A stretch of 64,000 nt of DNA from a phage: sequence record OZ346205.1; one strand, written 5' to 3'. Shown here in pieces: positions 30,574 to 45,696 of this stretch; the stretch's first letter is position 1, and every line of letters begins with the position of its first letter. The position numbers and the translations under genes were made by a program. The notes under the pieces are model-generated. The model was given only the letters and a program-made list of their open reading frames with translations. It made no database searches and was not told the DNA's origin.

Positions 30574-31902
30574 ATGAGCAAAACCAAATTAGAACTTACC
30601 TGGATAGGTAAAAACGAGCGCAAAAAATTAGAGCCACACATTTTGTTAGAAGACCCGAGCAAGTCTTATCACGCCAGCCAAAAAGTGACCGAAAACGATA
30701 TTTTTGATAATAAACTGATTTTTGGCGATAACTTATTAGCATTGAAGGCGCTAGAGCAAGAATATGCAGGCAAAGTGAAGTGTGTTTACATAGACCCACC
30801 ATTCAACACCGGGAGGGCTTTTGAGCACTACGATGATAGTCTGGAGCATTCCATTTGGCTGGGCTTAATGAGGGATAGGTTAGAAATAATTCGTAATCTT
30901 CTAAGTGATGACGGGGTAATATTCGTTCACTTAGATGATTGCGAAATGGCGTATTTAAAAGTTTTGATGGACGAGATTTTTGGTCGTGCAAATCAGTTAA
31001 ATACCATATCGATGACCACAAATTCCCCTTCGGGATTTAAGGCAACAGGAGCCACAGTTTTCTCCACAGCAAACTTTTTGCTTGTATATGCAAAAGATCG
31101 CACCCAGAAACCGCTTAACAAAATCTATATACCTAAAGGGTATGATACCGGATATAACAAATACCTATTAAACCCGGATGATCATTATAAAAATTGGACG
31201 TGGTGCGGTATTGCCGATGCGTTTGCAAAGGCCAATGGCTATAAAGATGCAAAAGAAGCCAAGAAAAAACTGCCTGACACATTCGATGATGAATTAGCAC
31301 AATTTGCAATTGATAATGCAGAACGTGTATTTCAATCTGTTGCAATTGGTGGTGGTGCTAAAATAAAGAGAAAAGAAACTATAGAGAAGTCAAAGAAAGA
31401 TAGGGATAAGGTTTATGTACATCCAAATGAGGATGTTGAAGGATTTTATATCGCAAATGGTAGGCAAATGGTCTTTTACTCCAACAGGCTTTTGGAAATT
31501 GACGGTGATATGCAACCTGCGGAACTAATAACTGATGTTTGGACAGACATTAGTTGGAATGGAATAGCAAATGAAGGCGGCGTTAGTTTCAAAAATGGGA
31601 AAAAACCAGAAGCGCTTTTGAAGCGGATTTTCGAAATGTGTACGCGAGAAGGTGATTTGGTATTGGATTCATTCGGTGGTTCGGGAACTACTGCCGCTGT
31701 AGCTCACAAGATGAAAAGACGTTGGATCTCCATCGAGATTGGTGATCATTGCCATACCCATATTATTCCGCGCTTGGAAAAAGTGATCGATGGGGAAGAT
31801 CAAGGTGGTATTTCTAAGTCTGTAAACTGGCAAGGTGGTGGTGGCTTCCGTTATTACAAACTTGCCCCGACCTTAATTGCGAAAGATAAGTCTGATCAAT
31901 AA
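30574..31902 (+). CDS. DNA N6-adenine/N4-cytosine methyltransferase, beta-class (442 aa)
   Basis: Motif IV VYIDPPF precedes motif I DSFGGSGTT (beta permutation). Confidence 0.75.
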   Translation: MSKTKLELTWIGKNERKKLEPHILLEDPSKSYHASQKVTENDIFDNKLIFGDNLLALKALEQEYAGKVKCVYIDPPFNTGRAFEHYDDSLEHSIWLGLMRDRLEIIRNLLSDDGVIFVHLDDCEMAYLKVLMDEIFGRANQLNTISMTTNSPSGFKATGATVFSTANFLLVYAKDRTQKPLNKIYIPKGYDTGYNKYLLNPDDHYKNWTWCGIADAFAKANGYKDAKEAKKKLPDTFDDELAQFAIDNAERVFQSVAIGGGAKIKRKETIEKSKKDRDKVYVHPNEDVEGFYIANGRQMVFYSNRLLEIDGDMQPAELITDVWTDISWNGIANEGGVSFKNGKKPEALLKRIFEMCTREGDLVLDSFGGSGTTAAVAHKMKRRWISIEIGDHCHTHIIPRLEKVIDGEDQGGISKSVNWQGGGGFRYYKLAPTLIAKDKSDQ

Positions 31903-41923: not shown

Positions 41924-42292
41924 ATGGAACAAATGAACGATCAAGAGTCGGTTGCGATGAACGAGCAAGAACAACCTCAAGAATTTTTCTTAGGGTTAAG
42001 TAAAGATCAAGTGTCTCTTTTGCTAGTGCTTTCTTCTTTCATGGGAAGACTTCAGGAGCTCACACAACAACCGGAGGCTGAACAATTATTTCAGGCTCTG
42101 CGTGAAGAAGAAAAATATCGTCGTTTGGACTATGCCTTAGGTTGGGTAGCTCAACAACGAGATATGCTGATGGCCCTCTCTGGGACCACAAGTTTTGCAA
42201 TGGGCCTGTTGGCTCAAGTTCAGGACAAATTAATTCAAGCAGGGTTTGCACACACGGCAAACACTAACGAAGAACAAGGAGACAAAGAATGA
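41924..42292 (+). CDS. hypothetical protein (122 aa)
   Basis: Track ORF. Confidence 0.5.
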   Translation: MEQMNDQESVAMNEQEQPQEFFLGLSKDQVSLLLVLSSFMGRLQELTQQPEAEQLFQALREEEKYRRLDYALGWVAQQRDMLMALSGTTSFAMGLLAQVQDKLIQAGFAHTANTNEEQGDKE

Positions 42293-43503
42293 GCGTTATT
42301 CAACAATTCGCTAACCCGATGAATCCGCGTGAAACTGTTTTACTGGCTCACGGCATGATTAAACGCGTCAGCATCAAGCCTATCAAAGGTGCTGATCCTA
42401 CAACAGGTATTAAAACCACTGTGTGGCAAGGTAAGAAAATTGAATCCAGCCACACCATCTCTTTACTGATTTCTGAACTGGATTCCTCTGATAACCTACT
42501 TCAAGGTGGTGAAGAAGTTTGGATCAGTATGGGCGATAAGCTGCTTAAACCGGGTCATCAAGACTCTGTCTCTGTTAAAATTGATGACAAGTGGGAAACC
42601 GTAACGCCAGGATGGATCGTAAATATTCCTTTGAAGGCAAACGAGCATAACGGTAAGACCTATTACAAAGGCTCACTGGCTAAGATGGTTAAGCTGGGTG
42701 TAGGAGAGGCTCCAGCAGCGACTCAGCAGCAAAAACAGCAACAAGGTGTACAATCACAAGGCCAGAAGCAGAATGCCAATCAGGACGTTTTACGCATCTA
42801 TGGCGATGTGACTCAGATTGTTGGCAACGTGGTTACTGTCAATGACCACAAGATTGGCGAAGGTGCTATGGTTGTCACCGATGAGCAGCTTAAAGATCTG
42901 GTGGTAGGTGGTCGTGTTGCAGCCATTGTTGACAAAGACACCGGAAACATTATCAGTGGTTTCAAAGCCTACCCCCCTAAGGCAGAGAACGGCACTCAAG
43001 GCTCCGGTGGCAAGCGTAAATCCTCTTACGACCCTATCGGTGTGGAAACGGGGCATAGCATCAATGCGTTGCAGATCATCCTGGATCGCGGGTTTAAGGT
43101 AGACGACCCACTGGGCGTGGCTAAAACACTGCACGTAGTCACCATTGAGCTTAAGAAAGAGTATGCTCAGGCCACCAACCGAACTGAAGATGAAGTAGGT
43201 GCCAGTGTCGGTAATGCGGTGTTGAACGCTTGTCGCCGTATTGACAAGAAAACGAAAGTTGATGATTTTGCAGCGGCAATTACTGCAGAAGCAAAAGATG
43301 TCTTGACTAATCTGGCTGAGCCGTTGTACGATTGGATCAAGAACGGTGCTGGGTCAACTGACCATCAAGAACCTCAGGCTACCAAACAGGAAGCAGCTCC
43401 ACAGCAAAACACTGTAGACGCTCCTCCTGTAAATGATGAGGAAGATGACCCAATGGATCAGAATCCAGCACAGTACTCCTTTGATGATGACATCCCTTTT
43501 TAA
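42289..43503 (+). CDS. ssb: single-stranded DNA-binding protein-like (404 aa)
   Basis: Q-rich flexible linker and canonical SSB C-terminal tip ...FDDDIPF; placed in the replication module. Confidence 0.6.
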   Translation: MSVIQQFANPMNPRETVLLAHGMIKRVSIKPIKGADPTTGIKTTVWQGKKIESSHTISLLISELDSSDNLLQGGEEVWISMGDKLLKPGHQDSVSVKIDDKWETVTPGWIVNIPLKANEHNGKTYYKGSLAKMVKLGVGEAPAATQQQKQQQGVQSQGQKQNANQDVLRIYGDVTQIVGNVVTVNDHKIGEGAMVVTDEQLKDLVVGGRVAAIVDKDTGNIISGFKAYPPKAENGTQGSGGKRKSSYDPIGVETGHSINALQIILDRGFKVDDPLGVAKTLHVVTIELKKEYAQATNRTEDEVGASVGNAVLNACRRIDKKTKVDDFAAAITAEAKDVLTNLAEPLYDWIKNGAGSTDHQEPQATKQEAAPQQNTVDAPPVNDEEDDPMDQNPAQYSFDDDIPF

Positions 43504-43518
43504 CAATTAGTTAACATA

Positions 43519-43548
43519 GCCCTGCCCGAAAGGGTGGGGCATTTTTAT
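43519..43548 (+). terminator. intrinsic terminator (repeated module, copy 2)
   Basis: Same CCCTGCCCGAAAGGGTGGGG hairpin as at 33121, followed by a T-tract. Confidence 0.55.
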
Positions 43549-43565
43549 ATAAGGAGATCTGAAAA

Positions 43566-43982
43566 ATGACATTAGAAGATATCATTGTTAAACCTGAGAA
43601 CTATGACCAATACAACCTGTCAACTCAATCTGTAGACCTTGGATGCGCCACGGTCAGTGCGTGGCCGGTTAACGGAAAAGAGCTAGATAAATGCTTAGAA
43701 GCTCACATGTCTATTAACAAGTTTCTGGATGAAAATACTCACTGGCTTGAGGGTGCAGGAGTATATGCTTCATGGTTGGAGAGTATGGGATTCGACTACC
43801 AATCTGAAGAAGGGTGGTGGAGCTATTTAGCTATCTGTCCAGAGACGCTACAATGCTTCATGAAATACTCTGAAGATTTAGAGTACCGGGCGGTGGTTGA
43901 TAGTGCTATTGCCCGTTATAGCCGTAAACCTTTTTCCCACGACATTAAAACTGTGGAAGAGTTTGTTGAAGTTTTCTGTTGA
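43566..43982 (+). CDS. hypothetical protein (138 aa)
   Basis: RBS AAGGAGA then ATG. Confidence 0.5.
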   Translation: MTLEDIIVKPENYDQYNLSTQSVDLGCATVSAWPVNGKELDKCLEAHMSINKFLDENTHWLEGAGVYASWLESMGFDYQSEEGWWSYLAICPETLQCFMKYSEDLEYRAVVDSAIARYSRKPFSHDIKTVEEFVEVFC

Positions 43983-44344: not shown

Positions 44345-44770
44345 ATGATCTATGAAATGCCAAAACTGATTCGTGACGATGCCCAAAACGCTCACACCAT
44401 TATTATGGGCAAACGCATGGATATTATTTGTCATAAAGATTTCTGGGAAGGAAGTTACTTCACAGAGTATTTTGGTAAACTGGATAATGGTCTGCTGATC
44501 CAGTTCTACACCGATGCGGAAAACAACATTCCCTGGGAGTTCGAAACTGAAGATATTCATAAACTTTTCACCTTCCTCGATATTAAGGTTAAGGCCAAGT
44601 TTGAAGAGGGTGAGTGCGACGATTGTGGATTTTATGAGGTAACAGATTTCTATCTTCCAAGTGGTAAGAACCTTTACTATGAAAGCCACTTCGGTAACTC
44701 AAATATGCCACAGTGCTGGACTGAGTTTTTTGAAATTGTGGAAGAGGAGCTGGCATATCGTGATTATTGA
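44345..44770 (+). CDS. hypothetical protein (141 aa)
   Basis: Track ORF. Confidence 0.5.
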   Translation: MIYEMPKLIRDDAQNAHTIIMGKRMDIICHKDFWEGSYFTEYFGKLDNGLLIQFYTDAENNIPWEFETEDIHKLFTFLDIKVKAKFEEGECDDCGFYEVTDFYLPSGKNLYYESHFGNSNMPQCWTEFFEIVEEELAYRDY

Positions 44771-45218
44771 TACTGTAGAGGGAGATTTAATCTCCCTTTT
44801 TAAGAGCGGTGCTGGTCACCTGATCCACGGTTGTAACTGCTTCCACACAATGGGTAAGGGTGTAGCAAAACAGATTGCCCGTGAGTTCCCTCAAGCATTG
44901 GAAGCTGATAAAATGACTATGCACGGTTGCCTAAGTAAACTGGGCGCGTTCTCCCGCTGGGAGCACTTATCTCCGAGAGGTATTGTCTACGGAATAAATC
45001 TGTATACTCAGTTCTACCCAGGGCCTAATGCTGAATATTTCTCAATACTGAAAGGCTTTGAGCGAGTCAATGAAGTATTTGAGGGGTCGATTTTACCATT
45101 CTACATCCCTAAGATCGGGTGCGGCATAGGTGGTTTGAAGTGGGAACATGTAGAGGACATTATTAACCTTGCCACTTTTGATATAGATATTATCGTGGTG
45201 GAGTACAAAGAGTGTTGA
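44760..45218 (+). CDS. macro-domain (ADP-ribose binding/processing) protein
   Basis: GDLISLFKSGAGHLIHGCNCFHTMGKGVAKQI and PKIGCGIGG resemble macro-domain glycine-rich motifs; GTG start inferred, uncertain. Confidence 0.5.
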   Translation: MIIDTVEGDLISLFKSGAGHLIHGCNCFHTMGKGVAKQIAREFPQALEADKMTMHGCLSKLGAFSRWEHLSPRGIVYGINLYTQFYPGPNAEYFSILKGFERVNEVFEGSILPFYIPKIGCGIGGLKWEHVEDIINLATFDIDIIVVEYKEC

Positions 45219-45243
45219 CAGCTATATTTTAAGATGGTATAGT
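45215..45243 (+). promoter_or_regulatory. sigma70-like promoter
   Basis: TTGACA, 17-nt spacer, TATAGT. Confidence 0.5.
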
Positions 45244-45469: not shown

Positions 45470-45664
45470 ATGAGAAACAAGAAAGAGCTTTACTCTGGTG
45501 AGTGGATAAACGATCAACAGGTAGGAGAGGTAACCTGCTTCCGGTGCTTTACTAGGTACAATCTTAAAACTGCACCAAAAAGTGTTCCAAAGACTGACGG
45601 TTATTACATAAAAGAACCTCATTGCCCAAAATGCAAATGCCGATTATACTGGAGTAACCTGTAA
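45470..45664 (+). CDS. small zinc-ribbon-like protein (64 aa)
   Basis: ATG after GGGAGA; CFRC...CPKCKC pattern. Confidence 0.45.
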   Translation: MRNKKELYSGEWINDQQVGEVTCFRCFTRYNLKTAPKSVPKTDGYYIKEPHCPKCKCRLYWSNL

Positions 45665-45668
45665 AAGA

Positions 45669-45696
45669 TTGACATCTGAAAACTGCGGTGTATAAT
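45669..45696 (+). promoter_or_regulatory. sigma70 consensus promoter
   Basis: TTGACA, 16-nt spacer, TATAAT. Confidence 0.55.

Follow-up and report, generated by a model that had tools for sequence, protein, structure and literature searches.

The subject of this analysis is a gene at positions 44760 to 45218 of a 64,000-nucleotide stretch of phage DNA (sequence record OZ346205.1), the whole of which is called the window here. A sequence-only reading had taken the gene to encode a macrodomain protein and a candidate counter-defence ADP-ribose hydrolase. A megablast search with the surrounding 3 kb, which includes the macrodomain gene, matched 120 phage records at 90 to 95% identity, nearly all of them rV5-like Escherichia phages (Vequintavirus), with query coverage of 80% or more in 116 of the 120 matching Vequintavirus-type records. 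The window comes from an rV5-like phage of the genus Vequintavirus. The gene and its main elements are the following.

44744 to 44749, plus strand: Shine–Dalgarno sequence GAGGAG, 10 nt 5′ of the GTG and within the 3′ end of the upstream open reading frame (ORF) (sequence, conservation).

44760 to 45218, plus strand: macrodomain coding sequence, orthologue of T4 Tk.4/AdfM by alignment (ORF, Pfam, AlphaFold2, Foldseek, identity to Tk.4, and the ratio of nonsynonymous to synonymous substitution, dN/dS).

44826 to 44876, plus strand: HGCNCFHTMGKGVAKQI, residues 23 to 39, with His23, Asn26, and the first glycine-rich ADP-ribose-binding loop M31-G32-K33-G34 (conservation, alignment).

44997 to 45011, plus strand: NLYTQ, residues 80 to 84, with Gln84 at the catalytic-Lys position (alignments, conservation).

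45108 to 45134, plus strand: PKIGCGIGG, residues 117 to 125, the second glycine-rich (diphosphate-binding) loop (alignments, conservation).

The ORF begins with GTG, ends with a TGA stop codon at 45216 to 45218, and is 459 nt long, encoding a product of 152 amino acids that begins MIIDTVEGDL and ends VVEYKEC. The motifs quoted in the sequence-only reading are all present: GDL as residues 8 to 10 (nucleotides 44781 to 44789), and HGCNCFHTMGKGVAKQI and PKIGCGIGG at the positions listed above. The same reading had remarked that the GTG at 44760 overlaps the end of the upstream ORF and had left the start codon in doubt. The overlap was confirmed, amounting to 11 nt with the ORF at 44345 to 44770, whereas the doubt was settled for GTG 44760 by the starts of orthologues and the Shine–Dalgarno sequence. 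In rV5-like orthologues, GTG is found at the same codon, and in distant orthologues (RB32, the T4-like contig L004, and the more distantly related Vequintavirus-like contig L008) ATG is found at the aligned codon. All orthologues compared for their start have an N terminus of MII or MIV and a purine-rich Shine–Dalgarno sequence of the GAGGAG or GGAGG type, and GAGGAG is kept upstream of the gene in all Vequintavirus-type orthologues examined. An identical 459-nt coding sequence was called by the GenBank annotators in the relatives HdK5, I29, and Bas54 (MaxBurger), and the first β strand of the AlphaFold2 model starts at residue 2. A longer ORF from GTG 44661 (185 amino acids) was rejected. Because the 33 residues that it would add are encoded within the upstream gene and are missing from every homologue, GTG 44760 is settled as the start as far as the sequence allows. 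Across six Vequintavirus-type orthologues, dN/dS was 0.11 to 0.21 with dS values of up to 1.2 to 1.4, the differences being mostly synonymous; the gene is real and is kept under purifying selection.

The Pfam search that was run on the product gave a match to the Macro family (PF01661) of 32 bits relative to a gathering cut-off of 22 (E = 1.3e-7), over profile positions 1 to 118 of 118, and the match to PHROG 335 had an E-value of 1e-60. A family profile was built from 101 homologues and was used for the search of PDB sequences, for the evaluation of conservation, and for the AlphaFold2 alignment. Among PDB sequences, this profile matched DarG of M. tuberculosis (1.7e-18), BT1257 (9e-18), SCO6735 (1e-17), TARG1 (1e-16), DarG of T. 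aquaticus (1e-15), and Poa1p (2e-15). The AlphaFold2 model of the 152-residue protein had a mean predicted local distance difference test score (pLDDT) of 96.7 and a predicted template modelling score (pTM) of 0.91, and it has the three-layer α/β/α macro fold. A Foldseek comparison of the model with the PDB returned TARG1, DarG, Poa1p, BT1257, and SCO6735 at E-values of about 1e-10 to 1e-6 and template modelling (TM) scores of 0.71 to 0.85. The top match was TARG1, the E-values for TARG1, DarG, and Poa1p were about 1e-9, the TM scores of the top matches were 0.75 to 0.85, and viral and other macrodomains came next; in all, 177 PDB chains matched at E ≤ 0.001, and among the matches listed there were macrodomains and designed serine hydrolases. 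The two glycine-rich loops, M31-G32-x-G34 and I119-G120-x-G122-x-x-G125, show conservation of at least 90% among the 101 homologues and can be aligned with their counterparts in DarG, TARG1, and SCO6735, so that ADP-ribose binding is predicted. Profile, predicted structure, and fold search therefore agree with the macrodomain assignment made from the sequence alone, and the protein is a macrodomain of the TARG1/ALC1-like class. Almost certainly, the gene product belongs to the Tk.4 family and works as a macrodomain hydrolase, its activity being predicted.

The family name comes from phage T4. In a tblastn search, homologues were found in 2742 of 50,697 phage records (about 5%) from many host genera, and T4-like phages matched at about 41 to 45% identity, at the gene annotated as tk.4. 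The protein encoded in the window is 41% identical to T4 Tk.4 over residues 1 to 150, that is, over the full length (E = 7e-43). Two relatives bridge this distance: a protein of Krischvirus W115 is 70% identical to the window protein and is encoded at the tk.4 position, flanked by vs and tk, and a protein from a metagenomic T4-like contig is 61% identical and is also found at the vs–tk.4–tk locus. In a neighbour-joining tree, which carries no bootstrap support values, the Vequintavirus proteins lie inside the T4-like Tk.4 clade, beside the Krischvirus protein, with SCO6735 and BT1257 forming one outgroup and DarG and PhiKZ gp104 another. The signature H-G-C-N-C ... N-x-Y-T-Q ... P-x-I-G-x-G-I is identical in the window protein, T4 Tk.4, the W115 protein, and a further family member (P0013). 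Because of the full-length identity, the bridging relatives at the tk.4 locus, and the placement in the clade, we identify the gene by sequence comparison as an orthologue of T4 tk.4, and a gene of this type has probably been exchanged between Straboviridae-type and Vequintavirus-type coliphages.

The T4 orthologue has a phenotype. In a T4 transposon library screened on a host with DarTG2, only tk.4 emerged as a significant hit; a clean tk.4 knockout was sensitised to DarTG2, for which the gene was named adfM, "anti-DarT factor macrodomain" (HIDEN-SEQ preprint, November 2025, 10.1101/2025.11.20.689424). DarT2 ADP-ribosylates thymidine in single-stranded DNA, which blocks phage replication (PMC11825919). 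It was proposed, on genetic evidence, that T4 AdfM enzymatically strips ADP-ribose from DNA (10.1101/2025.11.20.689424), and T4 also has a NADAR enzyme, AdfN, which acts against the guanine-modifying DarT1 (PMC11825919). The name AdfM was given independently to gp104 of phage PhiKZ in a 2026 Cell Reports paper; this protein removes the ADP-ribose added by DarT2 from DNA in vitro and also gives toxin rescue and phage protection (PMC13309987).

On the basis of the orthology and of the active-site similarity described below, we consider it likely, with some reserve, that the natural role of the window protein is the removal of DarT2-installed ADP-ribose from thymidine in single-stranded phage DNA. 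The gene, situated in an array of small accessory genes, would probably be expressed early or midway through infection. On a host carrying DarTG2, DarT2 ADP-ribosylates thymidines in single-stranded phage DNA and thereby blocks replication; the phage enzyme, going by its orthology, would most likely bind the ADP-ribose by means of its two glycine-rich loops and then hydrolyse the bond between thymine and ribose, acting as an orphan antitoxin. In this proposed chemistry, the alignment suggests that neither a catalytic lysine nor a Lys/Asp pair of the TARG1 type would take part. The orthologue in Bas54 (MaxBurger), bas54_0092, which is 80% identical to the window protein, was hit at 31 of 31 TA sites in the HIDEN-SEQ reference library and is listed there as non-essential on E. 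coli K-12 (10.1101/2025.11.20.689424). Its dispensability fits a conditionally useful accessory gene and is compatible with an anti-DarTG2 role, of which it is not proof.

The counter-defence role suggested in the sequence-only reading thus gains support through orthology with T4 Tk.4, that is, through the 41% identity, the position in the clade, and the T4 genetics. That reading had offered two mechanisms. Reversal of ADP-ribosylation by a toxin is supported, whereas degradation of ADP-ribose-derived signals is not, DarG being the sole match among 5027 PADLOC defence-protein models (2.1e-14).

The active site was evaluated by alignment. The TARG1 sequence used in the alignments and the tree was entered by hand, and those of DarG, SCO6735, and BT1257 were taken from HMMER alignment printouts and have a few terminal residues missing. 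It was found that Gln84 (motif NLYTQF) aligns with the catalytic lysine of TARG1 (K84), of DarG (K80, motif FPTKxxW), and of PhiKZ AdfM (motif FPTKDNW). Gln is present at this position in T4 Tk.4 and in every other Tk.4-type sequence examined, and N80, Y82, T83, and Q84 are invariant or nearly so in the 101 homologues. Gly124 aligns with Asp125 of TARG1, and so the Lys84–Asp125 pair of TARG1 is absent. Gln is also found in SCO6735 (Q85) and BT1257. The residues H23, N26, Q84, G120, and G122 correspond to H24, N27, Q85, G126, and G128 of SCO6735 and are at least 90% conserved in the 101 homologues, and the family-conserved residues of the first loop segment are H23, G24, N26, C27, M31, G32, G34, and A36. 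On DNA, SCO6735 hydrolyses ADP-ribose that is linked to thymidine, and it can rescue cells from DarT; all activity is lost in its Q85A mutant and nearly all in N27S, activity is likewise lost in G128E, and a water-mediated, lysine-independent mechanism has been proposed (PMC9411070). By this comparison, the chemistry of the window protein is probably of the SCO6735 type and not of the DarG type, with Gln84, held by Asn26, positioning the distal ribose.

The same residues bear on whether the protein might act by means other than catalysis, either by inhibiting DarT2 through binding or by sequestering, as a sponge, immune signals derived from ADP-ribose (for example, in Thoeris). In vitro, DarT is inhibited through interaction even by catalytically dead forms of SCO6735, DarG, and TARG1 (PMC9411070), and the macrodomains of some Thoeris effectors are reported to bind ADP-ribose derivatives. 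We regard non-catalytic action as very improbable, since the counterparts of the SCO6735 catalytic residues are all at least 90% conserved across the family, which argues for an enzyme, the DarT-binding C-terminal domain is lacking, and models of Thoeris or other macrodomain-containing defence systems were unmatched among the 5027 of PADLOC. Assignment of the gene to Thoeris or another macrodomain-containing defence system was rejected, PADLOC having given the DarG match only.

Several points weigh against removal of ADP-ribose from thymidine as the role of the enzyme. It shares only 21 to 27% overall identity with each of the biochemically characterised enzymes. The mobile loop of SCO6735 (with Lys89 and Lys94), which aids activity on DNA, is absent from the phage proteins, which have a five-residue gap opposite the insertion "GMKTG" of SCO6735 or "GIYKD" of BT1257, and most family members, T4 included, have Ala or Ser in place of Lys33, the equivalent of SCO6735 Lys34. 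With respect to DarG, the score with the equivalog NF048014 was 47 bits relative to a cut-off of 250, over profile positions 3 to 143 of 338, and both the catalytic Lys80 and the C-terminal DarT-binding domain of DarG are lacking. The support from T4 is genetic, its source being a preprint, and a literature search found no biochemical assay of any Tk.4-type protein and no published data on Vequintavirinae confronted with DarTG2. Furthermore, TARG1-like macrodomains, SCO6735 among them, also act on uracil-linked ADP-ribose in RNA and on proteins (PMC9411070, PMC13036486), and therefore the substrate could be broader or different.

The last point leads to the main rival of an anti-DarT2 role, namely that the enzyme reverses ADP-ribosylation of RNA (uracil- or phosphate-linked) or of proteins and that action against DarT2 is secondary or absent. 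SCO6735, with the same Gln-type site, also hydrolyses protein-linked ADP-ribose (PMC9411070); SCO6735, TARG1, and DarG hydrolyse uracil-ADP-ribose in RNA (PMC13036486); and phosphate-linked ends of RNA and DNA are substrates of TARG1 (PMC11833690). The top Foldseek match was TARG1 and not DarG, and the spread of the family over 2742 phage records and many host genera suggests a widely useful activity. Nevertheless, DarTG2 is the only system against which the orthologous family has a known phenotype in vivo, and two findings on RNA modification count against this rival as well: the adenine modification of mRNA by CmdT is described as irreversible (PMC13036486), and the 2′-OH modification of RNA of the RhsP2 type was not reversed by SCO6735, the TARG1-like enzyme tested (PMC11833690). 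We consider such a broader or different substrate unlikely. A related proposal, which we put forward tentatively and hold to be possible at most, is that two macrodomain lineages were recruited against DarT2, one Lys-type (PhiKZ) and one Gln-type (Tk.4), and that the Tk.4 lineage, because its chemistry resembles that of SCO6735, is a broad eraser of RNA and protein modifications. The two-lineage part of this proposal can already be seen in the alignments, and a broad Tk.4 eraser might protect against ADP-ribosylating defences beyond DarTG2.

The existing annotations suggest yet another substrate. Near-identical GenBank genes bear the label "macro domain protein", the labels in annotated relatives such as HdK5, I29, and Bas54 also include "phosphatase", "O-acetyl-ADP-ribose deacetylase", and "hypothetical protein", and PHROG 335, like many GenBank and RefSeq records, says "phosphatase" or "O-acetyl-ADP-ribose deacetylase". 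The protein would then be a metabolite enzyme, an ADP-ribose-1″-phosphate phosphatase or an O-acetyl-ADP-ribose deacetylase that removes what RNA repair or a phage Sir2-like enzyme leaves behind as by-products. Both sequence and fold show yeast Poa1p to be a clear relative, with a shared H-x-C-N-C segment, and phage I29 has a gene for a "putative Sir2-like protein" adjoining RNA ligase 1. However, the labels derive from the old domain name "A1pp" and not from any test, the Sir2-like gene of I29 is about 50 kb away from the macrodomain gene and unlinked to it, and the phenotype of the T4 orthologue is defence-specific. A metabolite enzyme is in our judgement quite unlikely, and removal of DarT2-installed ADP-ribose remains the preferred role.

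The match to DarG covers only positions 4 to 141 of the 329 in the PADLOC DarG model; T4 Tk.4 itself matched this model more weakly (1.3e-9), and the scores were 133 bits for PhiKZ AdfM, 52 for the window protein, and 36 for T4 Tk.4. There was no Pfam match to an ADP-ribosyltransferase or to DarT in the five ORFs on each side of the macrodomain gene, which are all uncharacterised phage ORFs. Identification of the protein as a DarG antitoxin was rejected, the score being below the equivalog cut-off, with no C-terminal domain, no Lys80, and no neighbouring darT.

The macrodomain gene lies within a long array of small uncharacterised ORFs on the same strand, 3′ of rIIA/rIIB, helicase, primase-helicase, and DNA polymerase genes. 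The features of this neighbourhood are as follows.

43519 to 43540, plus strand: strong intrinsic-terminator-like hairpin of 9 pairs (7 of them G–C) with a T-run (sequence).

44345 to 44770, plus strand: upstream ORF of 141 amino acids, phrog_8157, with an 11-nt overlap with the macrodomain gene start (ORF list, PHROG).

45215 to 45243, plus strand: sigma-70 promoter-like site TTGACA-17-TATAGT with an extended −10 TG, 11 of 12 matches (consensus match only).

45669 to 45696, plus strand: sigma-70 promoter-like site TTGACA-16-TATAAT, 12 of 12 matches (consensus match).

The hairpin at 43519 to 43540 closes the preceding transcription unit, the macrodomain gene being the fourth ORF after it, and in phage HdK5 a terminator is annotated at the homologous place. 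The promoter-like site at 45215 to 45243 overlaps the stop codon of the macrodomain gene and is predicted to drive the small genes downstream. The 6-kb region has 25 promoter-like sites, relative to 10.8 expected, an excess that fits an early region transcribed by the host polymerase.

The neighbourhood also bears on whether the enzyme might be the partner of ADP-ribosyltransferases of the phage itself, as an eraser that regulates the phage's own modifications. T4, which has the orthologue, encodes three ADP-ribosyltransferases: Alt, ModA, and ModB. No ADP-ribose-related Pfam domain was found in the ten neighbouring ORFs, and NADAR/AdfN and ADP-ribosyltransferases were likewise absent from the Pfam matches of the 30 window ORFs scanned, most of the small ones giving no domain match at all, and from the annotation of the complete genome of the close relative I29. 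Vequintaviruses nonetheless conserve the macrodomain gene, and we consider a pairing of this kind extremely unlikely.

The upstream ORF and the macrodomain gene are probably translationally coupled, because the stop of the former overlaps the start of the latter by 11 nt. Only 4 homologues of the upstream ORF were found among 5.8 billion proteins, all in Vequintavirus-like contigs; it is truncated in one genome in which the macrodomain gene is intact, and its Bas54 counterpart is non-essential (10.1101/2025.11.20.689424). AlphaFold2 gave two β-sheet-plus-helix repeats, with disagreement among five runs (pLDDT 84, 81, 49, 39, and 37), and a comparison of the model with the PDB gave no fold match (best E = 0.07, TM 0.25). 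The upstream ORF was rejected as a functional partner, being lineage-restricted, truncated beside an intact macrodomain gene, and without a fold match. A protein of 121 amino acids (P0017) from a 135.5-kb contig has 100% identity over 39% of the upstream ORF and 85% identity over 47% of the macrodomain, and it looks like a gene call that is fused or frameshifted, or else a genuine deletion by which both genes became joined in one Vequintavirus genome.

Some other genes of the region were also observed. The 404-amino-acid protein encoded at 42289 to 43503 (plus strand; PHROG 4477), about 1.2 kb 5′ of the macrodomain gene and followed by the terminator at 43519 to 43540, ends with SFDDDIPF, the C-terminal tip motif of the E. 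coli single-stranded DNA-binding protein (SSB), and it is the only protein in the window with such a C terminus. It had no Pfam match and no match among PDB sequences. It may, from this motif, be a phage SSB or a borrower of the host SSB interaction network, and its homologue bas54_0087 was classed as "Essential" in HIDEN-SEQ, with 8 of 57 TA sites hit (10.1101/2025.11.20.689424). Directly 3′ of this gene and overlapping its end, I29 (I29_192) and Bas54 (bas54_0088) have a homing-endonuclease gene. In the comparison with contig positions L003 15173 to 15796 and L013 1515 to 2138, nothing but the terminator and a short spacer is present in the window at 43504 to 43566; therefore, this locus is a presence/absence polymorphism of a mobile endonuclease.

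At 30574 to 31902 (plus strand), between the helicase and primase-helicase genes, the window encodes a 442-amino-acid N6/N4 DNA methyltransferase (Pfam N6_N4_Mtase, 1.6e-42). It looks like a variable, possibly anti-restriction, insertion, because I29 has only small hypothetical genes at this position. Two genes 3′ of the macrodomain gene, at 45470 to 45664 (plus strand), a 64-amino-acid protein matches Pfam Phage_zn_bind_2 (PF23903, 8e-23), which marks it as a small zinc-binding phage protein. The "putative Sir2-like protein" of I29 (L011 16631 to 17392) is encoded next to genes for RNA ligase 1 and for a phosphoesterase. Enzymes of the Sir2 type use up NAD+ and can yield O-acetyl-ADP-ribose or ADP-ribosylate proteins, and a link between the Sir2-like protein and the macrodomain of I29, with genes about 50 kb apart, is conceivable.

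If the proposed role is correct, rV5-like phages carry a built-in antidote to DarTG2, and this would help to predict their host range on strains that encode DarTG2; rV5-like phages are frequent candidates in E. coli phage therapy and biocontrol. The domain was already annotated in near-identical GenBank genomes, and the T4 orthologue has a name and a phenotype. Three points are new here: the start codon is settled, the protein is placed within the Tk.4 clade, and AdfM proteins of the Tk.4 type have an SCO6735-like Gln site. The one name AdfM hides two active sites, with Gln in the T4/rV5 type and Lys in PhiKZ, as in DarG and TARG1. The preprint in which T4 AdfM was named compared it with DarG only (10.1101/2025.11.20.689424), the site of which is Lys-type, and therefore mutational work should address Gln84 and Asn26 and not a lysine.

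In comparison with known systems, the protein is like T4 Tk.4/AdfM in length (152 relative to 155 amino acids), in being alignable end to end with the signatures H-G-C-N, Y-T-Q, and I-G-x-G-I-G, and in being a stand-alone macrodomain encoded amid small accessory genes. Both genes are dispensable on K-12, in that the Bas54 orthologue is non-essential and T4 tk.4 can be cleanly deleted. In contrast to T4, the phage here belongs to the Vequintavirinae and not the Straboviridae, a lineage-specific ORF is located upstream where T4 has vs, the start codon is GTG instead of ATG, and the second loop is IGCGIGGL instead of IGAGIGKG.

SCO6735 and BT1257 are like the window protein in having Gln at the Lys position, the conserved His and Asn, and the glycines of both loops, and in being stand-alone domains; moreover, SCO6735 protects against DarT without belonging to a toxin–antitoxin pair (PMC9411070). 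They differ in that the identity is only about 26% and in forming a separate branch of the neighbour-joining tree. Their E-values with the family profile are of the same order as those of DarG and TARG1. The phage protein has Gly24 where SCO6735 has Val25, the proposed role of which is by way of its backbone (PMC9411070). Human TARG1/OARD1 and yeast Poa1p are the top structural neighbours (TM 0.71 to 0.85) and of the ALC1-like class, although Poa1p is a metabolite phosphatase and only its N- and C-terminal segments align by sequence.

The DarG2 macrodomain of T. aquaticus and M. tuberculosis (PDB 5M31, 5M3E, and 5M3I) has the same fold and class, was the best or joint-best match in the PDB, NCBIfam, and PADLOC searches, and would be expected, like the window protein, to act on DarT2-modified thymidine. 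The window protein differs from it in having Gln for Lys80, a single domain, and no adjacent darT. PhiKZ gp104, a DarG2-like protein of a chimallivirus, is likewise a phage-encoded orphan macrodomain, with the same name AdfM, but it is only 21 to 24% identical to the window protein, is Lys-type, clusters with DarG, has DarG chains as its only matches among PDB sequences (9e-25), and is imported into the phage nucleus. The rV5-like phages are not known to form such a nucleus. Because of the low identity of PhiKZ AdfM, its DarG-only PDB matches, and its higher score with the DarG model, the two proteins called AdfM are, as judged by alignment, two lineages with different active-site types. The gene in the window is a new member of a known family and not a new kind of system.

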